Shown: positions 20,451 through 62,315 of the stretch, in pieces
How positions within the stretch are numbered: the first letter of the stretch is position 1
Layout of the letters: each line of letters starts with the position of its first letter
Source of the DNA: an uncultured Alphaproteobacteria bacterium
GTDB taxonomy: Bacteria; Pseudomonadota; Alphaproteobacteria; SHVP01
Direction: 5' to 3'
Assembly (NCBI GenBank): GCA_964611585.1
Contig: CAZTAK010000001.1
Location: 11,132 to 75,131, forward strand
Length of the DNA: 64,000 bases
Notes under the pieces: model-generated
Database searches by the model: none
What the model was told of the DNA's origin: nothing
Seen by the model: only the letters and a program-made list of their open reading frames with translations
Program-made: the position numbers and the translations under genes

Positions 20451-20452
20451 GG

Positions 20453-21394
20453 TCAGGTCCTCGGCGGGTGTTTCTTGTTGAATTCGCTGGTCGCGTTGAC
20501 CCATTCGTCGTAGCCGTGCTCGAAGAAGTGTTCGGCGATCTGGGTGCCGGTAGTGACCCACACCTTGTCGTGGCCGGTAATGTATTTGAGCGCCTCGTCA
20601 AGGGCGCCGATGCGGTGTGCCTGACCGACCGCATAGGCGTGCAGCGGAATGCACATGATGGTGCCCGAATTCTCACCCTCGGCGTAGAGGCGGTCGAAGT
20701 TGCCCTTGAGCCAGTCGAAATAGACCCGCGGCGGCACGAAGTGCTGGTTGTAAACGATGATGTCGTTCATCTCGAGGGAATAGGGAATCGAGATCAGGCG
20801 GCCTTCCTTGACGTTGACCGGACACGGCTGGTCGTCGTGGAACAGATCGCAGGTGTAAAAAAAATCGTTCTTCGCCAGCAGATCCATCGTGCGCTCGGTG
20901 TGCGTTAGCGCGGGCGCGAGATAGCCGCGGATACGCTGGCCGGTGTGCTGCTGCACCGACTTGATCGAGTCATCGAGGATCGCCTGCTCCTGCGCCTCGT
21001 TCATGTTGTAGGAATAGCGCGTGTTGTAGATGCCGTGGGAATAGAACTCCCACTCGCGCTTGACGCATTCCTCGACGATTTCGGGGTGGTGGTCCAAAAG
21101 CGCCACCGACAGCGAGATCGACCCCCTGACACCGTACCGGTCCAACACCTCCATCAGGCGCCAGTGGCCGACGCGGTTGCCGAAATCGCGTTCGGAATAG
21201 GGCACCAGATCGGGCCGCGGCTTGGGCCACGGCTGTCGTGCCGGGTTGGAGGGCCCGTCGAGTTCGTAATACTCGATGTTGGGCGCTACCCAGAAAGCGA
21301 TGCGCGCACCGTCCGGCCATTCGATCTTGGGACGGTTGATATATGGCAGATAATCGTAAAGCCCGAGGTCGCTTTTCACGGACCGACTCCCCAA
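20453..21394 (-). CDS. polysaccharide-deacetylase-fold hydrolase of the PuuE family (paralog)
   Basis: The 313-aa product has WPDGARIAFWV, DFGNRVGHWR and HGIYN motifs shared with PuuE-type cyclic amide hydrolases. Confidence 0.7.
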   Translation of the reverse strand: MGSRSVKSDLGLYDYLPYINRPKIEWPDGARIAFWVAPNIEYYELDGPSNPARQPWPKPRPDLVPYSERDFGNRVGHWRLMEVLDRYGVRGSISLSVALLDHHPEIVEECVKREWEFYSHGIYNTRYSYNMNEAQEQAILDDSIKSVQQHTGQRIRGYLAPALTHTERTMDLLAKNDFFYTCDLFHDDQPCPVNVKEGRLISIPYSLEMNDIIVYNQHFVPPRVYFDWLKGNFDRLYAEGENSGTIMCIPLHAYAVGQAHRIGALDEALKYITGHDKVWVTTGTQIAEHFFEHGYDEWVNATSEFNKKHPPRT

Positions 21395-21413
21395 TAATTG
21401 ATGACTCGCCCGG

Positions 21414-22088
21414 TCAGTTGACCGGCTGATAGTTGTTCAGATAGTCGCGCACAGTTTCGAACGATTCTATATCGCCGTACTTGAGCTGCATGTCGGCAAG
21501 GTTGGCAAAGTGCGGGATTTCGTGTTTGTCGGCGACGCCTTCTTCGCAGACGATGGTGCGATAGCCGTGCGACAGCCCGTCCACGCAGGTGGCGCGCACG
21601 CAGCCCGAAGTCGAGCCGCCGTTCAGGATCAACGTATCGATACCGTGGTACACCAGCAGCGAGGCCAGCGGCGTTTCATAAAACGCGCTCGCCATACGTT
21701 TGAGGTAGATCAGGTCGCGGCCGCGGTCGATCTTGAGGCGGTCGTCGAATTCGTTCCGCTCCGAGCCGATCTTGATGTTCTGGAGCGAATCCGGGGTATC
21801 GGTGCGCGTGCCCCAGACACCGCAGTCCTCGCCCGAATCGGCATAGCCGACGTGGGTCCACACCACCGGCAGGCCCTTGGATCGGCAGATTTCAGCCAGT
21901 TCGTTGACGTAATCGAGCTGTTTGGGGTCGGTTTCGTAAGCGGTCTTGAACAGGTCGGTGCGGGTGTAGGCCTTTTGCAGGTCGATGTTCACCAAGGCCG
22001 CCTTGCGACCGAATCCGAATCTAGCCCGGTCCGGATTGGCTTTGATGCTGGCGAAATACTCTCGTGGCGTGAGATCCGACGCTTCCAT
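21414..22088 (-). CDS. isochorismatase-family cysteine hydrolase (amidohydrolase)
   Basis: ATG 22088 has an RBS. The product carries the isochorismatase-like fold signature (ALVNIDLQKAY, the catalytic Cys in GGSTSGCV, and TIVCEEG). Confidence 0.7.
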   Translation of the reverse strand: MEASDLTPREYFASIKANPDRARFGFGRKAALVNIDLQKAYTRTDLFKTAYETDPKQLDYVNELAEICRSKGLPVVWTHVGYADSGEDCGVWGTRTDTPDSLQNIKIGSERNEFDDRLKIDRGRDLIYLKRMASAFYETPLASLLVYHGIDTLILNGGSTSGCVRATCVDGLSHGYRTIVCEEGVADKHEIPHFANLADMQLKYGDIESFETVRDYLNNYQPVN

Positions 22089-22187
22089 GGGTTTCCTGCC
22101 TGATTGATCTTTTTGAAAGGACTTTGAGCTAGATTCGGGGAGCGTTCCGGGATTGTCAAGCGGGGTTCGAATCCGGTCGGCGCTGCA

Positions 22188-22538
22188 TTGCAACCCGCGC
22201 GCCCTCTACGAACCGGCGGACCGCCCGGCGGGTTTTCGGTCCGCACCTGCACCTCCGGAGCGGAGGCGCTGACGGCGCTTGATGAATTCAAGCCCGACCT
22301 GGTTCTGCTCGACGTCATGATGCCCGGGATGGACGGCCCGGCGACCCTGCGCGCCATCCACGATATCAAAGGGTACGCCGACCTCCCGGTCGTCTTCTTG
22401 ACGGCGAAATTCCGGCCGCACGAGATCGGGCACTACGTCGATCTCGGCGCCATCGACGTGATCGCCAAACCGATCGACCCCCTGGACCTGCCGGCGCAAC
22501 TACAGGCGATTTGGACGCGCTATCATGCAAACGCCTGA
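22188..22538 (+). CDS. response-regulator receiver domain protein lacking the N-terminal beta1/alpha1 (acidic-pocket DD) region; TTG start
   Basis: It retains the phospho-acceptor region (LVLLDVMMPGMDG), T/K positions (VVFLTAK) and the C-terminal AKPIDPLDL. No upstream frame supplies the missing N-terminal residues. Confidence 0.5.
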   Translation: MQPARPLRTGGPPGGFSVRTCTSGAEALTALDEFKPDLVLLDVMMPGMDGPATLRAIHDIKGYADLPVVFLTAKFRPHEIGHYVDLGAIDVIAKPIDPLDLPAQLQAIWTRYHANA

Positions 22539-25209: not shown

Positions 25210-26238
25210 TCAGTTTTCTACCGCCCAGGTATGGCCCTGCCGCAGCATGGCGTTGAGACCGGCACTGGATTTGGCCGTGCGGGCGCTGTCGATCTGGGCC
25301 CAGACTTTGGTTTCAAAGCTGGCCGAAGGATCGCAGTACAGGACCCCCAGCGCGACCGGAAATTGCGGCCGCGGCATTGCCGCCAGCAGCGCGGCAAGCG
25401 CGTGGTTGGTCTCGTCGTGAACGAGAAGGTCGTCCTCGGTCATGCCGTTTTCGCCGATGACAACGCTTTCGAGGTCGAGCGTGCCGGGCTTCAGCCTCAG
25501 GCCGCGTTTGCGTTCGGTGCCAAAGATCAGCGGCGCCCCGTGCTCGACGAACAACTGGTTGTCGGCGGCAATATCTTTTTCGATGAAGTCACCAAATACA
25601 TTGTCGTTGTAGACGATGCAGTTTTGAAAAATCTCGACGAAAGATGCCCCGTCATGAGTGTGCGCCCGTTTGAGAATTTCCGGCAAATGAGTCTTGCTGG
25701 TATCGATGGAACGGGCCACGAATTGCGCCCCGCAACCGAGCGCAAAGCTGGCCGGATGCACGGGATTGTCGAGCGAGCCTTCGGGTGTCGAGGGCGACTT
25801 CGTTCCCGGCCGCGAAGTCGGCGAATATTGACCCTTGGTAAGACCGTAAATTTCGTTGTTGAACAGAATGATCTGCAAATCGACGTTGCGGCGCAGGGCG
25901 TGAAACAAGTGATTGCCGCCAATCGATGTGCCGTCGCCGTCGCCGGTAATCACCCACACGTCGAGATTTGGATTGGCGAGGCGGATACCGGTGGCGACCG
26001 CGGGCGCGCGCCCGTGGATGGTATGAAAGCCGTAGGTGGCCATGTAATAGGGAAAGCGCGACGAGCAACCGATACCCGACACAAAGACGGTTTTTTCAGG
26101 GTCGCCCCCGATTTCGGCCATCGTCTTCTGCATCGCCTTGAGAATCGCGTAATCGCCGCAACCGGGACACCAGCGGACTTCCTGGTCGCTGGCGAAGTCC
26201 TTGGCGGTACGCTTCTGCACAGCAGGAACAACGTTCAT
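25210..26238 (-). CDS. korB: 2-oxoglutarate(2-oxoacid):ferredoxin oxidoreductase, beta (TPP-binding) subunit
   Basis: The product has WCPGCGDY and GIGCSSR together with the TPP-binding motif GDGDG..NN.IYGLTKGQ. Confidence 0.85.
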   Translation of the reverse strand: MNVVPAVQKRTAKDFASDQEVRWCPGCGDYAILKAMQKTMAEIGGDPEKTVFVSGIGCSSRFPYYMATYGFHTIHGRAPAVATGIRLANPNLDVWVITGDGDGTSIGGNHLFHALRRNVDLQIILFNNEIYGLTKGQYSPTSRPGTKSPSTPEGSLDNPVHPASFALGCGAQFVARSIDTSKTHLPEILKRAHTHDGASFVEIFQNCIVYNDNVFGDFIEKDIAADNQLFVEHGAPLIFGTERKRGLRLKPGTLDLESVVIGENGMTEDDLLVHDETNHALAALLAAMPRPQFPVALGVLYCDPSASFETKVWAQIDSARTAKSSAGLNAMLRQGHTWAVEN

Positions 26239-26239
26239 G

Positions 26240-28120
<1,881 letters not shown>

Positions 28121-28268
28121 TGTCAGCCTTCTTGACTATTGCCGGAGGGGTCGGAGCCTTCGCAAGGAAAACACTAACCCTGCGGCCAGCACGTACGCCC
28201 AACGGAAATTAGGGCCCTGCCGGCTCCAAAATCAAGGGAATTCCCGGTCTCTCGGGGCGAAAAACCGC

Positions 28269-32767: not shown

Positions 32768-33586
32768 ATGAGAATTGCCGTTATTGGAACAGGATTCCGG
32801 CGCGAGGGTCACGACACCCCGCCGCAGCAGATTGTCGATATTGCCGGGAGCGGTTTCGATCCCCGATTGTTCGAACAGCGCCTGCCCGCGTTTCCCGTCA
32901 ACCAGATCAATCGAAACTTGTCCGCGGTCAGCAACATCGAAACGGGCCTGAGGGCGGCCGCGGACGGGTTCGACGCCATCTTCATCAATACCGTCGGCGA
33001 CTATGGTCTCGGCTCTTTGCGTTCGGCCTTGACAATTCCGGTCGTCGGGGCAGGCCAGGCGACGATGCACGCGGCGGCGCAACTGGGCGAGCGGTTTTCG
33101 ATCGTTACCATCTGGCCCGAGTCGCTTCGGTTCATCTATTCGAACTTGCTGCGACTCTACGGCATGAACGGGCATTGCGTTTCGGTGCGGTGCGTTTCGC
33201 AGGACGAGGAATTGCCGACTCTCTCGGACGACGAGAACTTCGTTACCGAAATGCGTCGCGGCGAGGCGAGCCAGCAGGACCGTATCGTTGCCGAATGCAT
33301 GAAGGCGATCGAAGAAGACCGGGCCGACACCATCATGTTGGGCTGCACCTGCATGGCTCCGGTCGCGGACGAGATTGCGGCGCGTTGCCCGGCCCCTGTG
33401 CTGAACCCGTTGACGACCGGCTACATGGCGACCGAGATGCAGCTGGCGCTCGGCCTTGGCGCCAGCAACCTCGCCTACCAGGATATCGGCGGCGACCGCC
33501 TCGCCCAGTACGCAGCGATGGCCGATGCCGTTCTGGCGCTGGAAGAGGAAGACGAGTTCCGCGGCACCGCCACAGCCGCCGAATAG
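32768..33586 (+). CDS. Asp/Glu/hydantoin racemase family protein
   Basis: The product MRIAVIGTG...DAIFINTVGDYGL...IMLGCTCM matches the two-cysteine racemase family pattern. It is a paralog of the fragment at 1-170. Confidence 0.65.
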   Translation: MRIAVIGTGFRREGHDTPPQQIVDIAGSGFDPRLFEQRLPAFPVNQINRNLSAVSNIETGLRAAADGFDAIFINTVGDYGLGSLRSALTIPVVGAGQATMHAAAQLGERFSIVTIWPESLRFIYSNLLRLYGMNGHCVSVRCVSQDEELPTLSDDENFVTEMRRGEASQQDRIVAECMKAIEEDRADTIMLGCTCMAPVADEIAARCPAPVLNPLTTGYMATEMQLALGLGASNLAYQDIGGDRLAQYAAMADAVLALEEEDEFRGTATAAE

Positions 33587-37918: not shown

Positions 37919-38050
37919 CCGCCAATCCGGACTTTTTGACCGACGACCCGGGCGGCGCCCCGTCCCGGCGCGCGGCGCGATTGCGGTCGAGCGCCTTTCG
38001 CCCGTAGGATCGATATCCGCCGCGCGGTACCCAATCCATGCCTTGCTGAT

Positions 38051-39283
38051 ATGAGCCTGGTTCTCGAGTTTCTCGAATTCGTCGAAAAGAAAGCGCCGCC
38101 ATCGGTCTCGGCGCTGTTGGCCCGAATTCTGCTCAAGTGCCGCGAAACGACCGGCGCCGAAGCGGGCACGGTCCATGTGGTGCGCCGGCGCGGGCGCCAG
38201 ACCCTGCTCGAAATGGTGCAACGCCAGAACGACGCGGTTCCGGTGGCCCCGGCAGCAGATGACCGCGCCAGCCCCGTCAATACGGCAACCATCGTCGGAT
38301 TCGCCGCCGCCACCGGCGAGCCCGTGCGCGAGTCCGACGTACGCCGGATTCGCTCGAACAAGCCCTACGCATTCAACCGCAACCTGGACCCGCCCGGTTA
38401 TGTCACGCGCTCGGTTCTGTGCTTGCCGGTAAAGAACTTTCAGGGCGACGTCGTCGCCGTGGTCGAACTGATCAACCGCCGGCTAAAGGGGCGCGAGGTG
38501 CCCGCTGCCTTTACGCGCGACCAGGCCAACCTGCTACTGCCGGTGATGCGGGTGCTGTCTGGATATATCGAACGCACCGACAATCTCGAAAGGATCGCGG
38601 CGCAAAACGTCAAACTTCGCCAGCGCGCGCGCACGCTCGCCAAGCAGCGCGCCAAAGTTGCCGACCTTCAGGAACAGACCGAAGACGCCTTCAAACTTTC
38701 GATCAGCCTGCTGGCGCGAGCCGCAGAAATTCACGACGAAGGCACCGGCAACCACATCGTCCGGGTCAACGAGTACAGCTATTACCTAGCCGACAAGCTG
38801 GGGATGCCGCGCGCGTTCTGCAACGAAATCCGCTACTCGGCACAACTCCACGACGTCGGCAAAATGGTGGTCGATGCCGCCGTGCTCAAGAAGGGCGGCA
38901 AACTGACCAACGACGAGCGTCAGGAAATGAACAAGCATCCGATCTACGGCTATCAGATTCTGTCGCATTCCCACCGCCTCAAACTGGCCGCAGGGATCGC
39001 CCTGTTTCATCATGAAAAATGGGACGGCAGCGGTTACCCCAACCGCGTAAAAGGCGAAGAGATTCCGATTTCGGCGCGTATCGTCGCAGTCGCCGATGCC
39101 TACGACGCGCTGCGCTCGGCGCGTCCCTACAAGCCCGGCTACAGCCACGAACGGACTGTTGAGATCATCGCCAAGGGTGATGAGCGCATCGACCCCAAGG
39201 GCCATTTCGATCCGACGGTGATCGACGTGTTCTCGCAGCATCACCGTGGCATGGCAAAGATCTGCCAGAAGTTTGTCGACTGA
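38051..39283 (+). CDS. GAF-domain / HD-GYP c-di-GMP phosphodiesterase
   Basis: The product has an HD motif (LHDVGK) and HHEKWDGSGYP (HD-GYP) after an N-terminal GAF-like region. Confidence 0.85.
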   Translation: MSLVLEFLEFVEKKAPPSVSALLARILLKCRETTGAEAGTVHVVRRRGRQTLLEMVQRQNDAVPVAPAADDRASPVNTATIVGFAAATGEPVRESDVRRIRSNKPYAFNRNLDPPGYVTRSVLCLPVKNFQGDVVAVVELINRRLKGREVPAAFTRDQANLLLPVMRVLSGYIERTDNLERIAAQNVKLRQRARTLAKQRAKVADLQEQTEDAFKLSISLLARAAEIHDEGTGNHIVRVNEYSYYLADKLGMPRAFCNEIRYSAQLHDVGKMVVDAAVLKKGGKLTNDERQEMNKHPIYGYQILSHSHRLKLAAGIALFHHEKWDGSGYPNRVKGEEIPISARIVAVADAYDALRSARPYKPGYSHERTVEIIAKGDERIDPKGHFDPTVIDVFSQHHRGMAKICQKFVD

Positions 39284-45534: not shown

Positions 45535-45705
45535 GTCGCGGAATCCGTCGAACTCTTTCACCAGTTCTTTACTTTCACAGGTTCTAATGCATCCCGAAAT
45601 TGTGCCATCTCGGGTGCAGTTCCGGCGCCGGACGTTGGGCCCGAACTCAAGCCGGATACGCAGGTTCCGGCGGAGCAAGCAAAATAGATTCGAGGCGGTC
45701 CAAAC

Positions 45706-47478
45706 GTGGACAAAGAAGAACTGAAGATTCTAGTTGCAGTCCCCGCCGTCGACATTAGGGCGGTCGCCCAGGCATTGACCGAGGCAGGTTTCCGGTATTC
45801 CCTCCATACTGCGAATACCGCCGAGGCTGCGAGCGACGGTTTAGGCCAGATCGGGTTCGATTTTGCGATTCTCGGTGAAACCCTGCCGGACGACGGGGGC
45901 GAAGCCTTACTTCCCCACATTATCGGGCACGGGATCGAAGTGCCCGTCATCTTCATTTTCGACGGCGACATGGACTTGTCGCGCGCGACGAATGTAGTTC
46001 GCTTGGGTGTCGCCGACTGTTTTCACCAGTCGGAGCTCTCGTCCGAGCGGTTGGAGCGTGCCGCACTGACGGCGCTCCGGTTTTACCGCGCCCAGTCGAA
46101 AGCGATCCGAGCCCAGAAGCAGCTGACCATGCGGGCTTTGTTCGACCCCCTGACCGATTTGCCGAACCGGGGCTTGTTCTTCGCCCGGGTGAACCGGGCG
46201 CTGGCGTTGTCGGAGAAAGATAATCGCGAAGTCGCCATACTGGCGATCGATCTGAACCGGTTTCGAGACGTAAATAACGTGTTGAGCCATGCTGCCGGTG
46301 ACGAACTGTTGCGGCTGGTAACGACACGCCTCAATAATGTGGTCCGCACGACCGATACACTGGCGCGCCTGGGTGCCGACGAGTTCGCGATCCTGATGCC
46401 GAAGAACGCATCGATTCCAGCGGCCGAGAGCATGGCGCGACGTGTGCACGACGCGATGCTCCCGCCCTATACCATCGAGCGCCAGAACCTCGGCGTCGGT
46501 TCAAGTATCGGTATTGCCGTATCGCCCCATCACGGATCGGACAGTTCGGCGTTGTTGCGCCATGCCGATCTGGCCCGCCTCGCGGCCAAACGGGGCAAAC
46601 AAGCGTTCGTCGTATTTGCTGGCGACGATACGAATCTGACACTCCACTCGATGTCGCTCGCCAGCGATCTCCGCAACGCCGTTCCCGAGAAACAACTGGT
46701 TCTCTATTACCAGCCGAAGATCAGCACCGAGGACGGAACCGTCTGCGGCGTCGAGGCGTTGACGCGCTGGAACCATCCCGAACACGGCATGGTACCGCCC
46801 GACACCTTTATCCCGTTGGCCGAGCAAACCGGTCTGATTGAACCGCTAACGCAGTGGCTTCTTGAAGAGGCCGCCGCCCAACACCGGTCCTGGAAGCGGA
46901 CCGGTAACCACATCCCGATTGCGGTCAATATTTCTGCCATCACGCTGCAAAATTCGAACTTTCCCCAAGTAGTCGGCGAACTGCTGGGGAGGCACTCGCT
47001 GTCGGGCGGCAGCGTCATGCTGGAGATCACCGAAAGCGCGATCATGTCCGATGTCGCCCAGGCCGCGCGGACGGTGAATGAACTCGCTGAAATGGGCGTT
47101 GGATTCTCGATCGACGATTTCGGAACCGGCTATACGTCGTTTTCCTACATCGGCAAACTGCCGATCCGCGAGATCAAGGTCGACAAATCGTTCGTCTTCA
47201 ACATGCTCAAAATCAACGACGACGCCGCCATCGTCCGGACCATCGTCGAAATGGGCAAGAACCTGGGCGTCAACGTGGTCGCCGAAGGGGTCGAGGACGA
47301 AGAGACCTGGAATGCCTTGGGGACACTTGGCTGCGACACCTGCCAAGGATACTTTTTCAGCAAGCCGGTGCCGCCGGATGAACTGGTGACGTGGCTGGAT
47401 ACGGCGCCCTGGCCGGTGCGCCCGCGGACCAAAATGATTGACGATGGCCTGCTCCGCGCCGACGGCACTACCGGCTGA
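45706..47478 (+). CDS. GGDEF (degenerate, GADEF) - EAL domain protein with an N-terminal receiver-like domain
   Basis: GTG start. The GGDEF A-site reads RLGADEF. The EAL motifs (EALTRW, DDFGTGYTSF, EGVE) are intact. Confidence 0.8.
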   Translation: MDKEELKILVAVPAVDIRAVAQALTEAGFRYSLHTANTAEAASDGLGQIGFDFAILGETLPDDGGEALLPHIIGHGIEVPVIFIFDGDMDLSRATNVVRLGVADCFHQSELSSERLERAALTALRFYRAQSKAIRAQKQLTMRALFDPLTDLPNRGLFFARVNRALALSEKDNREVAILAIDLNRFRDVNNVLSHAAGDELLRLVTTRLNNVVRTTDTLARLGADEFAILMPKNASIPAAESMARRVHDAMLPPYTIERQNLGVGSSIGIAVSPHHGSDSSALLRHADLARLAAKRGKQAFVVFAGDDTNLTLHSMSLASDLRNAVPEKQLVLYYQPKISTEDGTVCGVEALTRWNHPEHGMVPPDTFIPLAEQTGLIEPLTQWLLEEAAAQHRSWKRTGNHIPIAVNISAITLQNSNFPQVVGELLGRHSLSGGSVMLEITESAIMSDVAQAARTVNELAEMGVGFSIDDFGTGYTSFSYIGKLPIREIKVDKSFVFNMLKINDDAAIVRTIVEMGKNLGVNVVAEGVEDEETWNALGTLGCDTCQGYFFSKPVPPDELVTWLDTAPWPVRPRTKMIDDGLLRADGTTG

Positions 47479-49399: not shown

Positions 49400-51775
49400 C
49401 TATTTCGAGGTCATCACCCAGACGCCCTCCCAGTCGTCGCCTGGCGGTTCTTTCTTCAGGTGCTCGCAGCGTCCGATGTACGTCTGCGAAAGGGCGTCGT
49501 CGGGATTGAGCGCGAGACATTCCTTGAACGATTTAACCCCCTTGTCGAAGGCGCCCTTGCGGTAATGATCGACGCCCGCCTTAAAGTAATTCACCGCCTC
49601 CATCAGATTGGGAAAGGTCTCGTCGGTGTGATAGTCGAGCACCTCGTAGACACCCACCGGTTGGGTCTTGCCCTTGACGACGACCCTGTCGATGTCGCGC
49701 ATCCGATAGGTTCCGCGCAGCTTCTTCACCGTGTTCTCGCTGATAAGGATGCGCGCCGAATACTGTTTGCAGGCACTCTCGAGCCGCGCCGCCAGGTTCA
49801 CGCCGTCACCGATGATGGTGTAGTCCATGCGTTTGGGCGATCCGATGTTGCCCGACACCACCACGTCGGTATTGAGGCCGATGCCCATATCGACCGGAGG
49901 CAGGCCGTGGGCCTGGCGGTCGGCGTTCCAAACCCGGAGAGACGAGATCATGTTGATTGCTGCACGGACGCCGCGGTCTTCATCGTCGTCGTGGGCGACC
50001 GGTATTCCGAACGCCGCCATAATGGCGTCGCCGATAAACTTGTCGAGCATCCCTTCCTCGGCGGAAATACAATCGACCATCAACGTGAAGTATTCGTTGA
50101 GCAGGCTGACTGTGCCCTGGGCGCCGAGTCCCTCGGTGAGCGTGGTGAAGCCACGAATATCCGAGAACAGCACTGTCGATTCCGTGGATTGACCGCCAAG
50201 CAGGTCTTCACCACCGCCCAATACCTGATCGGCGAGGCCCGGATCCATGTAGCGCGCCATCGTCGATTTGACGCGCTTTTCACTTGAGATGTCTTCCATC
50301 ATCAACAGCGTGCCGAGTTGTTTGGCCTCGCCGCTCATCAGCGGCATGACCGTGAGATTGACCGACACCGTTTCGCCGCCGAATGCCATTTCGGCATCCA
50401 TGGTGATGTCGTGTTCCTGGGTCTCAGCGACCCACCCGATCTTTTCGAGCAGGAACATGTTATCGCTTTCAAAGAATTCCTGGGCCTTCTTGTCGATGAT
50501 TTCGTCTACAGATACCTTCATGATGCGCAGTCCAGCCGCGTTGCAAGTAACGATCTTGCCGTCTTCATCCGTTGTGACAACCGCATTCGACATGCTTTCC
50601 AGCATGCTTTCGTTGTAGTTCTTCATTTGCTGAACGTCGTCGAACAGCTTCGAGTTTTCGAGCGCGATCGAAACCTGCGCCGTAAACGCCTTGAGGCGCG
50701 ATTCGTCCTCGTCGGTAAACGGCCCGCCGCGCCGGTTCAGCACTTGGGTAACACCGATGGTCTTGCCGTTCTTGTTGACCACCGGCACGCACAAGATCGA
50801 ACGCGTAAAATAGCCGGTCTGCTTGTCGAACGAGGGATTGAAGCGCAAGTCGGCATAGGCGTGCGGGATGTTGACGGATCGCCCCGAAGTGAAAACCGCG
50901 CCGGCAATACCGGCATTGTTGGGCAGCCGGATTTCGCCGATCGACTCGCCCATGGCGACCCGGGAGAACAATTCGCTGGTCTTTTCGTCGTACAGAAACA
51001 GTGTCGAGCGGTCGGCCTGAAGCATCCGCGTGGCTTCGGTCATGACCCGCTGCAGCAGCGTCCCGAGTTCGAGCTCGGAGGTCACGTCGGAGACAATGTC
51101 GAGGAACTCCATCTCCTTTTCGCGGGTTTTCTTCATGCGCTCGACGAACTGGGTGCTTTGCAGTGCCACCGCGGCCTGCGACGTCATCGCCTCGATCAGC
51201 GCCAGATCGTCCTTGGTGAACCGGCCCTTCTTCTTGTTGAGGACCTGCGACACGCCGATGACTTCGCCTTTGACGGTGCGCACCGGGCAGCAGACGATAC
51301 TTTTGGTGTGAAAGCCGGTCTGCTGATCGACATTGGGGTTGAAGCGTTCGTCTGAATAGGCGTCATGGATGATGGCACCCTCGCCGTTGCTGAACACCCA
51401 GCCGGCAACGCCGCTGTCGTTGAGGATGCGGATTTCGCGTTTGAAGTTGCCTTGGGCGACCCGGGAATAGAGTTCGCCCGAGGCTGAATCGTTGAGGAAC
51501 AAGGTGCCGCGCTCGGCCCCCAGTTCCCAGGTTGTCATCTCGACCAGGGTTTCGAGAATCTCGTCGAGCGATTCGATCGCCACGCACCGCCGCGACACGT
51601 TGAGAAGCATCTCCGCCTGACGCAACCGTTGCTCGAGCTGGTGCTGCGAGGGCGCGCGGCCGGTGCCTTTTTTGCCTTTTTTTGTCCCGGCGGCGCTCGC
51701 TCGTCCGCGGGTTTCACCGGCCCGCCGTCCCGCCTGTCCGCTCCGCGCCAACCTGCCGCTACCTTCGCTAGCCAT
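49400..51775 (-). CDS. class III adenylate/guanylate cyclase with GAF-GAF-PAS sensor region
   Basis: There are two GAF-like segments (FLNDSASGELYSR.. / FLYDEKTSELFSR..), a PAS-like region, and a C-terminal CHD catalytic domain (LFSDIRGFT, FIGDAIMAAFG). Confidence 0.85.
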   Translation of the reverse strand: MASEGSGRLARSGQAGRRAGETRGRASAAGTKKGKKGTGRAPSQHQLEQRLRQAEMLLNVSRRCVAIESLDEILETLVEMTTWELGAERGTLFLNDSASGELYSRVAQGNFKREIRILNDSGVAGWVFSNGEGAIIHDAYSDERFNPNVDQQTGFHTKSIVCCPVRTVKGEVIGVSQVLNKKKGRFTKDDLALIEAMTSQAAVALQSTQFVERMKKTREKEMEFLDIVSDVTSELELGTLLQRVMTEATRMLQADRSTLFLYDEKTSELFSRVAMGESIGEIRLPNNAGIAGAVFTSGRSVNIPHAYADLRFNPSFDKQTGYFTRSILCVPVVNKNGKTIGVTQVLNRRGGPFTDEDESRLKAFTAQVSIALENSKLFDDVQQMKNYNESMLESMSNAVVTTDEDGKIVTCNAAGLRIMKVSVDEIIDKKAQEFFESDNMFLLEKIGWVAETQEHDITMDAEMAFGGETVSVNLTVMPLMSGEAKQLGTLLMMEDISSEKRVKSTMARYMDPGLADQVLGGGEDLLGGQSTESTVLFSDIRGFTTLTEGLGAQGTVSLLNEYFTLMVDCISAEEGMLDKFIGDAIMAAFGIPVAHDDDEDRGVRAAINMISSLRVWNADRQAHGLPPVDMGIGLNTDVVVSGNIGSPKRMDYTIIGDGVNLAARLESACKQYSARILISENTVKKLRGTYRMRDIDRVVVKGKTQPVGVYEVLDYHTDETFPNLMEAVNYFKAGVDHYRKGAFDKGVKSFKECLALNPDDALSQTYIGRCEHLKKEPPGDDWEGVWVMTSK

Positions 51776-54056: not shown

Positions 54057-54998
54057 TTATCCGCCGTCCGGCGGAATCGCGCCGGTGCGTTCGACGATCA
54101 GGCCATAATGCTCGGGCCGGCGGTGTTTATCGAAGGCGAACCAGGTCTCCTTATAGGAACGGCACAGATCGAGGTCGCATTTGGCGACGATCAGCTCGTC
54201 GTCCATGGTCGAGGTCATGGCGGTGATTTCGCCCGACGGCGCGATAATCGAACTCTGCCCCAACAGGTCGCAGCCTTCCTCGCGCCCCGCCTTGGCCACG
54301 CCTACCATCCAGGTCGCGTTCTGGTACGCGCCCGCCTGCATCGAGAGATGGTTGTGAAACGACGTCAGGTGGTCGTGTTGCGGCGCGGGCGGATTGTGGA
54401 CCGGCGAATTGTAGCCGCACATCACCAGTTCCACGTCCTGCAGGCCCATGACGCGGTAGGTTTCGGGCCAGCGGCGGTCGTTGCAGATGCACATACCCAT
54501 GTTGCCGTCCATGGTGCGCCACACCGGAAAGCCGAGGTCGCCGACCTCGAAATAGCGTTTTTCAAGATGCTGGAAAGGACGGTAGTTTTCGTATTCGGCG
54601 TGACCCGGCAGATGGACCTTGCGGTATTTTCCGGCCAGATTGCCCGCCTTGTCGATAAGGATCGACGTATTGAAGTGCCGCGTGCGGCCGTTTTCTTCGA
54701 CCAGTTCCGCGTAGCCGAGATAGAACCCGATGCCGAGGCGCCTGGCCTCGTCGAACAGCGGTTGCGTCGCCGGGTTCGGCATCTCGCGCTCGAAATAGGC
54801 GTCAATCTCTGCCTGGTTCTCCATAAACCAGCGCGGGAAGAAACTGGTCAGCGTGAGTTCGGGAAAGACGACGATGTCGCACTTCATCGACGCCGCCTCG
54901 CGCAAAAGCTCCAGCAGACGCGCGACCACCGTCTGCCGCGATTCCGCGCGCGCGATGGGGCCCATTTGCGCGGCGCCGAGGGTGAGGATACGGGTCAT
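54057..54998 (-). CDS. N-carbamoyl-D-amino-acid hydrolase (nitrilase superfamily)
   Basis: The product has near full-length similarity to D-carbamoylase (VFPELTLTSFFPRW, GKYRKVHLPGH, the catalytic Cys in GMCICNDRRWPE). Confidence 0.85.
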   Translation of the reverse strand: MTRILTLGAAQMGPIARAESRQTVVARLLELLREAASMKCDIVVFPELTLTSFFPRWFMENQAEIDAYFEREMPNPATQPLFDEARRLGIGFYLGYAELVEENGRTRHFNTSILIDKAGNLAGKYRKVHLPGHAEYENYRPFQHLEKRYFEVGDLGFPVWRTMDGNMGMCICNDRRWPETYRVMGLQDVELVMCGYNSPVHNPPAPQHDHLTSFHNHLSMQAGAYQNATWMVGVAKAGREEGCDLLGQSSIIAPSGEITAMTSTMDDELIVAKCDLDLCRSYKETWFAFDKHRRPEHYGLIVERTGAIPPDGG

Positions 54999-56257
54999 GA
55001 CGACTCCTCGTTCGCAAGGGCAACCAGTGCTTCGGCGAGAACCCGGGCGCCGGCGGCAAGGTCCTCGGGTGTCGCGCTTTCGGCCTCGTTGTGGCTGAGA
55101 CCACGGGCACACGGGACGAAGATCATCCCCGACGGCGCAATGTCGTTCATGTATTTGGCATCGTGCAGCGCGCCCGAGATCATATCCATGTTGGGCAGCG
55201 CGAGCTCGGTGGCGGCTGCGCGGACGCGCGCGACGACGCTGGTATCGAAGGTGGTCGGCGGCACCGAATAGGTCTCTTTCACCGTCAACGGCAGGCCGCC
55301 CGCATGGCGCTCGCAAATGCCTTTGATGGCATCCCCCTTCCCGGTCAGCACGGCGAGATCCGGATGCCGGAAATCGACCGTAAAGAAGGCGCGCGCCGGC
55401 ACCGTGTTGGGTGAATTGGGCGATACCTCGAGGCGCCCGATGGTGAACCGCAGCACGTCGGTTTCGTCAGCCATCAGGTCGTGCATTTCGCTAATCATCG
55501 CCAGTGCAGCCTTCAGCGCATCCTTGCGCGCCGCGTTCGGCGTGGTGCCGGCGTGCGCCTCCTCGCCCAGAACCTCGACCGCAAACCAGCGGCAACCTTG
55601 AATGCCGGTGACGACGCCGACGGTCTTGTCTTCGTTTTCGAGACGCGGGCCCTGTTCAATGTGGGCCTCGATGTATGCCGCGACGGGGCTCCCGAAGGCG
55701 CGCGGCGTGGCGCCGGGCGTCGCCGCCAGCGATTGCGGCAGGGCGTCGCCGACCCGCACCCCGTCCCGGTCGCGTACGTCCAGCATTTCGGCAAAGTCCA
55801 TATTGCCCGCATACACGCCCGAGCCCATGGTCGCCGGCTGGAAACGCCCGCCTTCCTCGTTCATCCAGGCGACAAATTCGAGTGGCCGTCTGGTTTTTAG
55901 GCCGATGTCCTCGCACGCCTCAAGGACTTCAAGTCCCGCCATCACGCCGTAGGCGCCGTCGAACTTGCCGCCAGTCGGTTGGCTGTCGATGTGGCTGCCG
56001 GTGACGACCGGCGCCGCGTTCGGGTCTTCGCCCGCGCGGCGGAAAAAGAGATTGCCGATTTCGTCGATGTGGGTCGTAAAGCCACGCGCCTCGGCCCAGC
56101 CGCGGATCAACGCCCGCGCCTCGGCATCCTCGGGCGTCAGTGCCTCGCGGTTGACCCCGCCCTTTTTGGTGGCACCGATGGTGGCCAGGTCCATCAGGCG
56201 CTGCCACAGGCGGTCCTGCTGGACCGCCAGCGAAATCGGGCGATTGGATGGGGACAT
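54995..56257 (-). CDS. M20-family Zn-dependent amidohydrolase (N-carbamoyl-L-amino-acid hydrolase / allantoate amidohydrolase / beta-ureidopropionase type)
   Basis: The AmaB/AllC-like pattern is present (GSHIDSQPTGGKFDG, the His/Glu metal ligands). A 4-nt overlap links it to the downstream D-carbamoylase gene. Confidence 0.8.
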   Translation of the reverse strand: MSPSNRPISLAVQQDRLWQRLMDLATIGATKKGGVNREALTPEDAEARALIRGWAEARGFTTHIDEIGNLFFRRAGEDPNAAPVVTGSHIDSQPTGGKFDGAYGVMAGLEVLEACEDIGLKTRRPLEFVAWMNEEGGRFQPATMGSGVYAGNMDFAEMLDVRDRDGVRVGDALPQSLAATPGATPRAFGSPVAAYIEAHIEQGPRLENEDKTVGVVTGIQGCRWFAVEVLGEEAHAGTTPNAARKDALKAALAMISEMHDLMADETDVLRFTIGRLEVSPNSPNTVPARAFFTVDFRHPDLAVLTGKGDAIKGICERHAGGLPLTVKETYSVPPTTFDTSVVARVRAAATELALPNMDMISGALHDAKYMNDIAPSGMIFVPCARGLSHNEAESATPEDLAAGARVLAEALVALANEESS

Positions 56258-56510
56258 AAACGGACGACCTTTCGTGGACTTGGTGCCGCGCGGCACAGAA
56301 AACCGCCGCACCCCGGCAGAGCAGACAAGCTCCACCCGTTTCTGGACGCGGTAAGAGTGGGTCCCTATTATTCCGCCCCAAGGCGTGTTGTCCACCGCCA
56401 AACCCGGAAGCCGGAGCCGCATCGGCGCTCGTCCTTCCGGGCTGCCGTTTCCGGGCGCTACCGGAACACAGGCCCGGGTCGGGGCCGCGCCGCCAGGGAG
56501 GAATCAGTCG

Positions 56511-58589
56511 ATGCAATTGGTTGGTGTCGATGTCGGGGGCACGTTTACCGACATCGTCTATACGGATACGGACGATAACCGGACCATCATCCACAAGGTC
56601 CCGACGACACCCGAGGACCCGTCGAAGAGCGTCATGCAGGGGCTTTACGAATTGTGCGAGCGCAATGGGATCGACCGCAACGGGGTCGATCATGTGCTAC
56701 ATGGCACCACCATTGCCACCAATGCCGTGCTCGAAAATGACGGCGCGCATACCGGCATGATCACCACCAAGGGCTACCGCGATATTCTGCACATCGGCCG
56801 GCATCAGCGCCCACAGCACTATTCGATCATGCAGGAAATCCCCTGGCAGAACCGGCCTCTGATCCGGCGCCGCCACCGCAAGACCGTGACCGAACGTATT
56901 GCGGCGCGGGGCGACGTGCTGGCGCCGCTGAACGAAGACGAAGTGCGTATCGCCGCCCGCGCGCTGAAGGACGAAGGCGTCGAGTCGATTGCGGTGTGTT
57001 TCCTGTTTTCCTATATCGACCCCGGCCACGAAGAGCGCGCCGCCGAGATCGTGCGCGAGGTGTACCCCGAAGCCTTCGTCACGACCTCGTCCTCGGTGAC
57101 GCCCCAGTTCCGCGAGTTCGAGCGCTTTACCACCGCGGCGATGAACGCCTTTGTCGGCCCCAAGGTACGGACCTACGTCTCGAAACTCGCGAACAGCATC
57201 CGCGACGGCGGGATGAAGGCCGATCTGCATATCATGGGCTCGAACGGCGGGATCGCAACGGCGGGCCTTGTCGCCGAACGCCCGGTGCTGACGCTGCTGT
57301 CGGGACCGGCGGCGGGCGTCCTTGGCGGGGCGTGGTGCGGCGAGGTCGCGACACGCGAAAAACTCATCACCTTCGATGTCGGTGGAACTTCGGCCGACAT
57401 CGGTATCGTCACCGAAGGGCGGTTCGGCGAAGCGACCGCGCGCGATACCTGGATCGCAGGATTTCCGTTGATGGTGCCGATGATCGACGTTCATTCGATC
57501 GGCGCCGGCGGCGGCTCGATCGCGTGGCGCGATTCGGGCGGCACCTTCCGGGTCGGCCCGCGCAGCGCCGGATCGCAACCGGGCCCCGCCGCCTACGGGC
57601 GCGGCGGCAAGTTGCCGACGGTAACCGACGCCAACGTGGTTCTGGGACGGCTCAGCGCCGACAATTTTCTGGGCGGCGAAATGGACCTCGATGTCGAGGC
57701 GGCGACGCGGGTGATTTCCGCCTTCGCGAAGGAACTCGATCTCGGACTGCATGACTGCGCCGAAGGAATATTGACAATCCTCAACGCCAATATGGCGAAC
57801 GCGATCCGCTCGCGTACCGTTCAGAAGGGTATTGACCCGCGCGACTATGCGCTGGTCGCCTTCGGCGGCGCGGGGCCCTTGCATGGGGTGGCGGTGGCGG
57901 CGGAAATGGGAATCCAGGAAGTTTTGATTCCGCCTTACCCGGGTATCACCTCCGCGGTCGGCCTGTTGACGACCGATCACAAGTACGATGCGATTCGTAC
58001 CGAATTCCAAGTCCAGGGCGAAGTCGATACCGCCCGCCTCATGCGCGACTTTGAGGCGATGGAATCGGGGCTCGCCAACCAGTTCCGCGAAGAGGGCCTC
58101 GATGCCGATCAGGTAAGCTTCCTCCGTTCGGGCGATTTGCGCTATCTCGGCCAGGGCTATGAGCTCCGGATCGACCTTTCCGAAGGCGACCTCGACGCGG
58201 CCGCCCTAAAGGCCCTGTGGGCACAGTTTCATGGCTCCCATCTCAAGGACTACGGCCACAACTACCCCGATACGGAAATCGAAATCGTCAATATCCGCGT
58301 TTCGGGCGTCGGCACCATGCCCAAGATCGGAACCCCCTCGCTCGATGGTGCGAAACGGTCATTCGAGGCGGCGCTGGTCAAGCGCGATGCCTGCCACTTC
58401 CGCGTGGACGGCGTGCTCGACAGTTTCGAGACCGCGTTCTACCAGCGCGAGACCCTGCCGCTGGAACAGGACATCGCCGGCCCCGCCATCATTTTGCAAA
58501 AAGACACCACCACCGTAGTGCCGCCTGGCGCCACCGCCCGCGCCGATACCGGCGGCAACCTGTTCATTCGCCTGGGAGGAACACCATGA
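56511..58589 (+). CDS. hyuA: hydantoinase/oxoprolinase family, subunit A (ATP-dependent N-methylhydantoinase A-like)
   Basis: An RBS (GGGAGGAA) is present. The product begins [16 protein letters not shown] and has the hydantoinase_A domain. Confidence 0.85.
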
Positions 58590-60388
58590 CCGGCCCAAGC
58601 CCCGTCGCCGGGCGCGGCGACAACGGCCCTGCCGTCGATCCGATCACGGCGTCGGTAATTCAGGGCGCGCTTGAAAGCATCGCCATCGAGATGGGCTACA
58701 AGCTGATGCGTATGGCGTATTCGTCGATCATCCGGGAATCGGAAGACTTCGGCGCCGCGCTCGTCGATACCAAGTGCCGCCAGTTGTGCGAAAGCAAGCA
58801 GTCGACGCCGCTGCAATCGGGTCCGATCCCGGGTTACATCAAGGGCATTCTGAAAACCCTGAAGGCGCGCGGCGAAGCGATCGAGCCCGGCGACGTCATC
58901 ATGCACAATGACCCCTACGGTGGTTCGTCCCACGGCCCGGACGTGCTGTTCGCAGTGCCGGTGTTTCACGACGGTTCCCTGATCGGATTTGCGGCCACGA
59001 CCGCGCATCATCTGGATATCGGCGCGCTGTCACCCGGCAGTTGCGGCATCGTCGATGCGATGGACGTCTATGCCGAGGGCCTGCAGTTCAAGGCGATCAA
59101 GGTGTACGACCAGGGCGTCAAGAACGACATGGTGTGGCACATGTTGCGCGACAATATCCGCGCCTCGCACCTGGTGGTAGACGACATGGAAGCGCAGATC
59201 GCCGCCGCTCGAATCGGTGGCGAGCGGTTCCTGGAACTTGCGAACCGATATGGCATCGACACCGTCAACGCCGCCGCCGAGGCATTGATGGATGCATCCG
59301 AGCGCATGATGCGCGACGCCATCGCCAAGATTCCGGACGGAACCTATTCGGCCACCGGCCATATCGACGGTTACGAACTGAGTGACAATCCGAAAGAAAA
59401 GGAACTTCCCATCGTCGTCACCGTCACCGTCGAGGGCAATGATATGACCGTCGACCTGACCGGCACGGCGGATCAGATCGACCTGCCGATCAACATGCCG
59501 CTCGAGGGCACGGTCGATGTCGCGATCTGGCTGACGGTGCGCTCGATCCTGGTGGATACTGCCGTCTACGGCCATGTTCCGCAAAATTCAGGACTTACCC
59601 GGCCGATCAAGATCATCGTGCCGCCGGCGACGCTGGCCAACCCGGAATTTCCGGCGCCGGTCATCGCGCGTTTCTCGCCCGGCGTCATCATTGCCGACAC
59701 CCTGATGCGGGCGTTGGCGCAAGCCGTGCCGCGACAAGTCTCGGCGGGGGTCGGAAATCTCAAGGTGATCGCGTTCTCGGGCCTCGAAAAGGGGCGCCAC
59801 TGGGTCCACATGGAAATCTTCGAGGGCGCCTACGGCGGGCGCCATGGCATGGACGGGATGGATGCGGTCGATACGCTCTATGCCAACACTCGCAACAACC
59901 CGATCGAAGACATTGAGACCCACCTGCCGCTGCGGGTGGATCGCTATGAACTGCGCGAGAACATGGTGCCGGCCGGCGAATGGCGGGGCGGCATTGGTGC
60001 GATCCGCGAGTTTTCGTTCAAGGCCGACGGCGGCTATTCGGTCGAGGGCGAAGGCCACATGTTCAGGCCTTGGGGCTTTTCAGGCGGCGCCGAAGGCGAT
60101 CCGGCTGAACTTCAGTTCCGCACCGCGGCCGGGGTGGCGTCGGATCTGCCCTCGAAGCTCCCCTACCAGCCGGCTACCACCGGCGATACCTTCCTCGCGG
60201 TCGGGCCCTGCGGTGGCGGCTACGGCGACCCGCTGGCGCGCGACCCGGAGAAGGTCCGCGACGACGTGCTCGACGGGTATATCGGGACCGAGACCGCGCT
60301 TGCCGATTATGGCGTTGTCCTGACCGAGGCGCTTGAAGTCGACGCCGCCGCCACCGAAACGACCCGCAGCGAACGCCGCGCCGCGTGA
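58586..60388 (+). CDS. hyuB: hydantoinase/oxoprolinase family, subunit B
   Basis: ATGA overlap with the hyuA stop. An RBS (GGAGGA) is present. The hydantoinase_B domain is present ([12 protein letters not shown]). Confidence 0.85.
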
Positions 60389-60518: not shown

Positions 60519-62315
60519 TTGGCTTGCCGAACGATGACCTTCGATCAAACCGCAATATTCGTCATTCTTGCGCTCGCCCTCGCCGGATTCATCTGGGGGC
60601 GGTGGCGCTATGACGTCGTCGCCTTTGCGGCCCTGATCGCCGCGGTTCTGGTGGGGGTGGTGCCGTCGGGCGAGGCCTTTCTCGGTTTCGGCCATCCCGC
60701 CACAATCACCGTGATCGGTGTGCTGATCATGAGCCGGGCCCTGCTGAATTCAGGCGCGGTCGATCTTCTGGCCGACCGCCTGACCCCGGGGACCCGGACC
60801 CCGGCGACGCATATCGGCACCCTGATCGGGATTGGCGCGCCGTTGTCGGCGATCATGAACAACGTCGGGGCGCTGTCGCTGCTGATGCCGGTGGCGGTGC
60901 AGTCGGCGATCAAGGCCAAGCGGTCGCCTGCGGTCATCCTGATGCCGCTGTCGTTCGGAACCATCCTCGGCGGGCTGGTAACGCTCATCGGGACGCCGCC
61001 CAACATTATCGTCGCCACCTACCGTGGCCGGGTCGCGGATGCGCCGTTCGGCATGTTCGACTTTACGCCGGCCGGTGCGGCGGTGGCGGTGGCGGGCGGG
61101 CTGTTTGTGGCATTGATCGGCTGGCGGCTGATTCCGAAATCGCGCCGCGCCGCACCGCCGCCGGGCGAACTGTTCCACATCGAGGACTACGTTGCCGAGG
61201 CCAAGGTGCCCGCCGGGTCGCCCTCAATCGGCAAATCGTTGGGCGAAATCGACGATGACGCCCGCGAGCAGGACGTCGTTGTCATCGGCCTGATTCGGGA
61301 CCGCATGCGCATTTTCGCCGCCGCACGCCACCAGCACATTCAGGAAGGCGACATTGTGGTGCTCGAGGCGGCGGCCAAACGAATCGACAAGTTCGTCACC
61401 GAAAGCGGGTTGGAACTGGTCGGCACCGAAGAGGAAGCGACCGCGTTCCTGAAAGCCGAACACATGACCGTCGGCGAGGTGGTGGTTTCGCCGGGCGCCC
61501 GCATCGAAGGCCGCAACGCCCGGGACCTGCGTCTTGCGGGCCGTTATGGGGTCAACCTGCTGGCGATTTCGCGCCAGGGCCAGCCCATTACCGCCCGCCT
61601 CAATTCGGTTCGATTCCGGGCCGGCGATGTGCTCCTGTTTCAGGGCGAACCCGAGCGCCTCAATCAGGTGAACTCGGCACTGGGATTGCTGCCGCTGGCG
61701 GAGCGGTCGTTGCAGATCGGCCGCGCCCCGCAGGCGGGCCTGACGGTGGCGATCTTTGCCGCCGCCATTCTGGCCGCAACATTCGGGGTGATGTCATTGC
61801 AGATTGCCTTGGGCCTTTCGTCGATTGCGGTCGTGGTGCTGCGGATCGTTCCGCTGACGCAACTCTACGAGGCGATTGACTGGCCGGTAGTGGTTCTGCT
61901 GGGGGCGATGATGCCGATTGGCGAAGCGCTGGAAACCACCGGCGCCACCCAAATGATGGTGGGCGCGATCGGCGGCCTGTCGGAGGGGGTTTCGCCCCTG
62001 CTGATTCTCGCGCTCCTGTTGATCGTCACCATGACGCTTTCGGATGTGATGAACAATGCGGCGACAGCCGTGGTCGCGGCGCCCATTGCCTTCGGCGTCG
62101 CGCAATTGCTGGGACTCAACCCGGACGCCTTCCTGATGGCGGTTGCGATCGGCGCGAGTTGCGCGTTCCTGACCCCGATCGGCCATCAGAACAATGCGCT
62201 GATCCTCGGCCCCGGCGGCTATCATTTCGGCGACTACTGGCGCATGGGGCTGCCGCTGGAGGTGCTGATCGTGGTCGTCGCGGTGCCGATGATCGCCTGG
62301 GTGTTCCCGCTCTAG
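60519..62315 (+). CDS. SLC13/DASS-family anion permease with two internal TrkA-C domains
   Basis: Two membrane halves with SLC13-type hairpins (NNVGALSLLMP / NNAATAVVAAP) flank two TrkA_C-like regulatory domains. Confidence 0.8.
   Translation: MACRTMTFDQTAIFVILALALAGFIWGRWRYDVVAFAALIAAVLVGVVPSGEAFLGFGHPATITVIGVLIMSRALLNSGAVDLLADRLTPGTRTPATHIGTLIGIGAPLSAIMNNVGALSLLMPVAVQSAIKAKRSPAVILMPLSFGTILGGLVTLIGTPPNIIVATYRGRVADAPFGMFDFTPAGAAVAVAGGLFVALIGWRLIPKSRRAAPPPGELFHIEDYVAEAKVPAGSPSIGKSLGEIDDDAREQDVVVIGLIRDRMRIFAAARHQHIQEGDIVVLEAAAKRIDKFVTESGLELVGTEEEATAFLKAEHMTVGEVVVSPGARIEGRNARDLRLAGRYGVNLLAISRQGQPITARLNSVRFRAGDVLLFQGEPERLNQVNSALGLLPLAERSLQIGRAPQAGLTVAIFAAAILAATFGVMSLQIALGLSSIAVVVLRIVPLTQLYEAIDWPVVVLLGAMMPIGEALETTGATQMMVGAIGGLSEGVSPLLILALLLIVTMTLSDVMNNAATAVVAAPIAFGVAQLLGLNPDAFLMAVAIGASCAFLTPIGHQNNALILGPGGYHFGDYWRMGLPLEVLIVVVAVPMIAWVFPL

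Follow-up and report, generated by a model that had tools for sequence, protein, structure and literature searches.

In Pseudomonas sp. NS671, HyuAB is a non-stereospecific, adenosine triphosphate (ATP)-dependent hydantoinase paired with the M20-family enzyme HyuC (PMC8453981). The classical partner of the industrial D-carbamoylases is a cyclic-amidohydrolase D-hydantoinase (dihydropyrimidinase), with further variety among clusters, and the natural substrates of D-carbamoylases and hydantoinases, both industrial workhorses, are still unclear (PMC3546935). Here, we describe a five-gene block in a 64,000-nucleotide stretch of a contig from an uncultured soil or marine Alphaproteobacteria bacterium (CAZTAK010000001.1, positions 11,132 to 75,131; hereafter the window), composed of ATP-dependent HyuA/HyuB, an M20 amidase, a nitrilase-type D-carbamoylase and a DASS-type anion transporter. 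The combination of HyuAB with both carbamoylases and this transporter, with no racemase, differs from the described types, and our literature search found no paper describing it; all components come from well-known families. The block probably, though far from certainly, serves to salvage hydantoin-type cyclic ureides, N-carbamoyl amino acids or both; it would process both enantiomers and need no racemase. It comprises the following genes.

54057-54998, minus strand: D-carbamoylase (nitrilase superfamily, CN_hydrolase), 313 residues
54995-56257, minus strand: M20 amidase (Peptidase_M20 and M20_dimer), predicted N-carbamoyl-L-(alpha/beta)-amino-acid hydrolase, 420 residues
56511-58589, plus strand: HyuA, large subunit of the ATP-dependent hydantoinase/lactamase family, 692 residues
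58586-60388, plus strand: HyuB, small (hydrolytic) subunit, 600 residues
60534-62315, plus strand: DASS/CitMHS-family anion transporter with two TrkA_C domains, 593 residues

Genes were called by listing and translating open reading frames (ORFs), followed by Pfam and NCBIfam scans; a rough GC3-based gene finder, which missed the D-carbamoylase gene, served only for picking ORFs to domain-scan. The window has a GC content of ~63%. The M20 stop and the D-carbamoylase start share an ATGA (TC-ATG-A) with a GAGGAG ribosome-binding site upstream, and hyuA and hyuB share another ATGA, with a GGGAGGA ribosome-binding site at the overlap and a further GGGAGGA ahead of the hyuA ATG. The M20 gene and hyuA diverge from a 253-bp spacer. 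No intrinsic terminator was detected past the D-carbamoylase gene or past hyuB. ORF calls and domain scans thus bear out the four hydantoin-cluster genes, and the coordinates, of an earlier note on this DNA, with overlapping carbamoylase genes on the minus strand and ATGA-coupled hyuAB divergent from them; chance is no concern for the four gene identities, because the domain matches are full-length and high-scoring. The note's account of the interval 54057-60388 leaves out the transporter gene (60534-62315) and the spacer promoter, which are parts of the conserved unit.

The nitrilase-family protein possesses a full-length CN_hydrolase fold (PF00795, E = 1.1e-54, residues 7-283) and matches the D-carbamoylase structures 1fo6, 2ggk, 1erz, 1uf4, 8hpc and 6le2 with E values of 1e-127 to 7e-134, the best being the Agrobacterium enzyme 1fo6 (7e-134; 62.7% identity across 303 residues). 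Matches to other nitrilase branches are far weaker (N-carbamoylputrescine amidase, 5.6e-22; formamidase/aliphatic amidase, ~1e-5 to 1e-6), and no NCBIfam equivalog of another branch scores above its cutoff. Alignment to 1fo6 reveals an intact catalytic triad (Glu47/Lys127/Cys172) and retention of Gly132, His144, Asn173, Arg175, Arg176, Asn197 and Pro199, with one conservative change, Thr198 to Ser, among the triad and substrate-contact residues listed for D-carbamoylases (PMC11503299). The protein thereby shares full-length identity, triad and contacts with the industrial enzymes of Agrobacterium, Pseudomonas and Nitratireductor (1fo6, 1erz, 1uf4, 6le2, 8i99). A member of the same 90%-identity cluster from a metagenome-assembled Alphaproteobacteria genome, HJN03701.1 (P0121), is annotated by NCBI as N-carbamoyl-D-amino-acid hydrolase. 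An aliphatic amidase identity was rejected on E values of only ~1e-5, compared with <=1e-127 for D-carbamoylases. Judged from sequence, the protein is a close relative of characterised D-carbamoylases, as the earlier note had proposed, and its D-enantioselectivity is predicted. The industrial enzymes differ in their dihydropyrimidinase partner, which is unrelated to the ATP-dependent HyuAB of the window; among the loci we inspected, the D-carbamoylases of Sulfitobacter (L093) and Rhizobium (L094) have the dihydropyrimidinase partner.

The M20 amidase is composed of a catalytic domain (PF01546) with an inserted dimerisation domain (PF07687). It exceeds the cutoffs of the hydantoinase/carbamoylase family model TIGR01879 (376 bits against 204) and of NF006769 (483 against 452) and fails that of the AllC equivalog TIGR03176 (245 against 598). 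Structural matches are led by 5thw (4e-114), followed by 8c46 (7e-98), 8apz (6e-93) and AllC 1z2l (4e-53); among solved structures, identity is highest (48-49%) to Burkholderia proteins of unknown function, with 44% identity to the Rhizobium radiobacter beta/L-carbamoylase RrCbAA (8c46) and 33% to Escherichia coli AllC. A neighbour-joining tree (50 bootstrap replicates, few references) unites the window enzyme with 8c46, 5thw, 4wjb and 5tp4 in a 96%-bootstrap clade, leaving AllC and the Geobacillus L-carbamoylase outside. The motifs NEEG, HIEQGP, VDFRHP and HDA align with 8c46, the metal-binding motifs are conserved, and the residues matching Glu131, Gln196, Arg291 and His385, the ligand residues of RrCbAA (PMC10952681), are identical. 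The window enzyme thus resembles the 8c46 and Burkholderia proteins (44-49% identity, the same 96% clade, metal and ligand residues kept). It differs from them in forming, with its metagenomic relatives, its own 100%-supported subgroup, whose members are always followed by a D-carbamoylase gene. An allantoate amidohydrolase identity was rejected on the tree and the AllC model score. The M20 phylogeny that the earlier note had called for, limited as it is to neighbour joining and few references, therefore places the enzyme with carbamoylases; since the nitrilase-family enzyme in turn goes with D-carbamoylases, neither turns out to be the AllC-like or aliphatic-amidase-like protein that would have spoken against the note. 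Its L-/beta-specificity is predicted from RrCbAA, which acts on N-carbamoyl-L-alpha, beta and gamma acids and is inactive on D-forms (PMC10952681).

RrCbAA, the closest characterised M20 relative, has N-carbamoyl-beta-alanine as its best substrate and serves pyrimidine degradation (PMC10952681), which raises the alternative of an ATP-driven reductive pyrimidine catabolism. Here, HyuAB would open dihydrouracil or dihydrothymine, the M20 enzyme would act as beta-ureidopropionase, and the D-carbamoylase would take a chiral beta-ureido acid or a side product. ATP-dependent hydantoinases of the HyuAB family can accept dihydropyrimidines, a further point for this route. Against it, the block encodes no dihydropyrimidine dehydrogenase or dihydropyrimidinase homolog, a homology search found no dihydropyrimidinase homolog anywhere in the window, and an anion transporter is ill-suited to neutral pyrimidines. 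To our knowledge, the characterised D-carbamoylases act on alpha-carbamoyl rather than beta-carbamoyl acids. We consider this route decidedly improbable.

HyuA possesses the Hydant_A_N, Hydantoinase_A and Hydant_A_C domains, and HyuB matches Hydantoinase_B at 5.9e-148. HyuA carries the ATP phosphate-binding motifs DVGGTFTD (P1) and DVGGT (P2), as defined by DxGGTxTD and DxGGT, respectively (PMC8453981). The closest solved relative of both subunits is the N-methylhydantoinase 7hk5 (HyuA, 4.5e-197 and ~44% identity; HyuB, 8.8e-143 over 7hk5 residues 701-1278), followed for HyuA by the caprolactamase 6yra (1.4e-112). Scores fall short of the caprolactamase equivalogs (CapA, 566 bits against 1000; CapB, 263 against 1000) and far below the cutoffs of the acetophenone carboxylase (Apc) models. 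The nearest annotated relatives of HyuAB, uncharacterised proteins at 59-72% identity, are encoded alongside hydantoin-pathway genes on plasmids and chromosomes of Alphaproteobacteria. In Agrobacterium tumefaciens, the neighbours on a plasmid are an ABC transporter, a GntR regulator, an Asp/Glu racemase and an M20 hydrolase; on a Sulfitobacter plasmid, an ABC transporter, a racemase, a D-carbamoylase and a dihydropyrimidinase; and on a Flavimaricola contig, HyuAB occurs together with an M20 gene, an ABC transporter, a racemase and a D-carbamoylase. It is mainly because of this gene context that we read the subfamily as hydantoinase rather than lactamase.

The match to N-methylhydantoinase, best for both subunits, bears on another alternative, a creatinine/N-methylhydantoin branch in which HyuAB would make achiral N-carbamoylsarcosine, converted to sarcosine by a carbamoylase or an isochorismatase-type enzyme. 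An isochorismatase-family protein encoded in the window (21414-22205, minus strand) indeed finds its best structural matches in N-carbamoylsarcosine amidohydrolases (3.6e-31 and 1.8e-22). Its gene, however, lies 34 kb from HyuAB within another operon, together with genes for two PuuE-like deacetylases, and the scanned ORFs contain no creatininase, creatinine deaminase or sarcosine oxidase domain. Moreover, an identity of 44% does not fix the substrate in the HyuAB family, the closer HyuAB relatives (59-72%) sit with racemase, M20 and D-carbamoylase genes, pointing to chiral 5-substituted hydantoins, and an achiral intermediate needs no two stereo-distinct carbamoylases. The N-methylhydantoinases themselves (7hk5/9h03) share the actin-like ATPase motifs of HyuA; they are fused proteins of 1288 residues, unlike the two ATGA-coupled genes of the window, which have no adjacent N-carbamoylsarcosine amidase gene. 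A literature search found no paper for the N-methylhydantoinase structures. We rate this branch the least probable of the readings weighed here.

The transporter matches CitMHS (1e-70), two TrkA_C domains and Na_sulph_symp. Its gene adjoins hyuB in every relative with enough flanking sequence, is duplicated in several, and is the immediate neighbour of the M20 gene in the loci without HyuAB (L088, L109). We predict that it imports the pathway substrate; membership of a DASS-type family suggests a charged substrate. Mhp1, the known hydantoin permease, is not of this family but an NCS1 member.

Conservation of the block was followed through exact-protein look-ups of D-carbamoylases 75-100% identical to that of the window (L081-L090, L095, L096) and through a metagenome scan with the M20 protein, which returned 15 relatives at 63-100% identity (L098-L112). 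The look-ups revealed a common arrangement, transporter gene(s), hyuB and hyuA reading one way and M20 and D-carbamoylase genes the other, with the same chromosomal neighbours; one 75%-identical D-carbamoylase stands alone. In the metagenome scan, a D-carbamoylase gene follows the M20 gene in all 14 evaluable loci, and hyuA is divergently placed upstream in 11 of 12, down to ~65% protein identity. The five-gene unit is thus conserved in the window's own lineage. Two relatives are without HyuAB, their transporter gene lying directly divergent from the M20 gene (L088:6377-9991, L109:6004-9185). The D-carbamoylase gene follows M20 in L088, and the L109 contig ends just past the M20 gene. A DDE transposase fragment beside the L088 transporter gene hints at loss or rearrangement of the hyuAB module there.

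One or two alpha/beta-hydrolase genes directly follow the D-carbamoylase gene in most relatives, often overlapping (L084:7769-8584, L089:10942-11760, L088:10933-12602); they have no NCBIfam match and are absent from the window and from the subgroup at 64-67% identity. A GAF-GAF-PAS adenylate/guanylate cyclase gene (49400-51775, minus strand) is syntenic with the cluster in relatives.

Retention of transporter and M20 genes in L088 and L109 suggests that N-carbamoyl compounds, not only hydantoins, may be imported. It also favours a core that would take up and hydrolyse free N-carbamoyl amino acids directly, for instance products of the carbamoylation of D- and L-amino acids by cyanate or urea, with HyuAB a co-located add-on acting on a separate lactam, 5-oxoproline or other substrate. 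The anion transporter family fits N-carbamoyl acids better than neutral hydantoins, and the M20-D-carbamoylase pair occurs elsewhere with transporters and no hydantoinase. Conversely, HyuAB is present in 11 of the 12 evaluable relatives and shares the divergent control region, and its subfamily accompanies carbamoylases and racemases in three unrelated annotated replicons. We regard such direct salvage as unlikely, if worth keeping in mind.

Gene identities, intact active-site residues, gene coupling and conservation of the block are observed; the route that follows, from the substrate and the way it is transported to the stereochemical course of each step and the later fate of the D-amino acid, is inferred. 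The DASS-family transporter would import an anionic substrate, either a carboxylate-bearing hydantoin or an N-carbamoyl amino acid itself. At a cost of one ATP, HyuA/HyuB would open the stable five-membered ring, yielding an N-carbamoyl amino acid. Decarbamoylation, with release of CO2 and NH3, would then fall to the translationally coupled carbamoylases, the M20 enzyme acting on L-alpha/beta forms and the nitrilase-type enzyme on D-forms, such that both enantiomers are consumed without a hydantoin racemase and nitrogen and the amino-acid skeleton are gained. Racemic hydantoins could plausibly be converted in full without a racemase; this requires HyuAB to accept both enantiomers, for which the non-stereospecific NS671 enzyme is a supporting precedent. 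The block resembles the NS671 hyuA-hyuB-hyuC-hyuE cluster, compared here by description only, in its two-subunit HyuA/HyuB beside an M20 carbamoylase and in the order of ring opening and decarbamoylation; it departs from that cluster, whose M20 enzyme is an L-carbamoylase and which has a racemase, in the absence of a racemase and the presence of the M20-coupled D-carbamoylase and the DASS transporter.

The claim that no racemase lies in the cluster stands: no Asp/Glu-racemase homolog was found at 52.7-62.3 kb. The nearest is encoded at 32768-33586 (plus strand), a full Asp/Glu/hydantoin-racemase family protein (PF01177, 3e-28) located ~20 kb from the cluster beside Mla lipid-transport genes; it is 28-35% identical to racemases from hyu clusters and has no NCBIfam match. 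Of the two racemase homologs that the earlier note placed elsewhere in the window, this one holds up, whereas the other, at 1-170, is only the last 56 residues of a racemase-like ORF (3-170, plus strand) cut by the window edge, a C-terminal fragment matching the 32768-33586 copy at E = 0.002.

Several points weigh against salvage of both enantiomers through HyuAB. Among solved structures, HyuAB is closest to an N-methylhydantoinase, an enzyme with an achiral product. ATP-dependent hydantoinases include L-selective enzymes; were HyuAB one of them, the D-carbamoylase would not be needed for its products. The absence of HyuAB from L088 and L109 means that ring opening is not essential to the core. 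The M20 clade also includes beta-ureidopropionases; therefore, the M20 enzyme may act on a beta-ureido acid instead of an L-alpha substrate. Finally, the five-gene block contains no dedicated regulator, and no D-amino-acid dehydrogenase, oxidase or racemase was detected among the scanned window ORFs.

The block points to a natural design in which both enantiomers are removed by two carbamoylases instead of being racemised, served by an anion importer, and it reduces the range of candidate substrates to charged hydantoins or N-carbamoyl acids. A more specific version, which we think unlikely, makes it a dedicated route for one natural anionic hydantoin in both enantiomers, for example hydantoin-5-propionate (a 5-carboxyalkyl-hydantoin) or an oxidised nucleobase product, with the dual carbamoylases replacing a racemase. 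In practical terms, the block supplies a matched, co-evolved enzyme set; the gain is modest because every component comes from a well-known family and the pairing of the carbamoylases is common.

The frequency of that pairing was assessed by scanning species-representative genomes with a D-carbamoylase profile and keeping the best 80 loci (L001-L080), a sample biased to D-carbamoylases like the query; the window's own lineage is missing from it, with a best match of 73% identity. In 28 of the 80 loci, the D-carbamoylase gene is immediately preceded (<=250 bp, same strand) by an M20 carbamoylase-family gene, and in 37 independent loci such a gene occurs anywhere within the locus, at least two M20 clades being represented; the pairing is thus a recurring one. 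Biased as it is, the sample is enough to reject the earlier view that adjacent D- and L-type carbamoylases are uncommon. The survey M20 enzymes mostly fall into a sister clade with ~40% identity to that of the window. The link of D-carbamoylase to HyuAB is less common than the M20 pairing: HyuAB occurs nearby in 4/80 loci, and the window's HyuAB subfamily in only one (Flavimaricola). The HyuAB proteins of L014, L015 and L062 were set aside as a different subfamily (32-40% identity).

In 34 of the 80 loci, a diaminopropionate ammonia-lyase (DAPAL) gene directly precedes the D-carbamoylase gene, with or without an M20 gene between, and 23 of those 34 have the order lyase, M20, D-carbamoylase, usually accompanied by ABC or TRAP transporters. 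The survey M20 genes usually have such a lyase gene ahead of them (NF006058, 450 bits). A lyase-linked D-carbamoylase locus on a plasmid of Rhizobium sp. ACO-34A (L094:6534-9918) also contains a dihydropyrimidinase gene. This DAPAL-M20-D-carbamoylase triad, found in many Proteobacteria, resembles the block in having an M20 gene that directly precedes the D-carbamoylase gene in the same orientation, and differs in its sister M20 clade (~40% identity), its lyase, its ABC/TRAP rather than DASS transporters and its lack of HyuAB. A homology search detected no diaminopropionate ammonia-lyase homolog in the window. The linkage suggests an undescribed pathway via N-carbamoyl-2,3-diaminopropionate to pyruvate and ammonia and may point to a natural substrate for D-carbamoylases; together with a single anionic hydantoin as substrate of the present block, if true, it would give the D-carbamoylase a defined physiological role. 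Literature searches found no paper linking diaminopropionate ammonia-lyase with D-carbamoylase and no relevant paper on the physiological role of D-carbamoylase.

The spacer between the M20 gene and hyuA contains two promoter-like sites.

56367-56394, minus strand: sigma-70-like promoter TGGACA-16-AATAAT for the M20 operon, 10/12 consensus matches, the best in the region, ~100 nt upstream of the M20 start
56343-56371, plus strand: candidate divergent hyuA promoter TGGACG-17-TATTAT, 9/12 consensus matches, weak evidence

The TGGACA...GGAATAATAG block is the sole strongly conserved stretch of the spacer in the relatives L084, L089 and L088, and the minus-strand site is conserved in relatives even without hyuA. 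The M20 start at 56257 is supported because this promoter falls inside a longer, 475-residue version of the ORF. The two opposite-strand sites (56343-56394) share one AT-rich element, GGAATAATAGG.

The block is bordered on the left by genes for an FG-GAP protein, a coiled-coil protein and a GAF-PAS-cyclase and on the right by a DUF179/AlgH-like gene, within ordinary chromosomal surroundings that include PGK, a GGDEF-EAL protein, an Opp-type ABC transporter and Mla genes. Second-messenger genes are dense to the left of the cluster, comprising the cyclase (49400-51775, minus strand) and GGDEF-EAL and GAF-HD proteins (45688-47478 and 37940-39283, both plus strand). Further away, an apparent operon (19473-22205, minus strand) contains two PuuE-like (allantoinase-type) polysaccharide-deacetylase genes and the isochorismatase-family gene, the deacetylases being 29-34% identical to those flanking the Sulfitobacter D-carbamoylase. 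2-Oxoacid:ferredoxin oxidoreductases are typically tied to anaerobic or microaerobic metabolism, and two adjacent ORFs of this type lie at 25210-28135 (minus strand), one with POR, POR_N and PFOR_II domains and the other with a thiamine pyrophosphate (TPP)-binding C-terminal domain.

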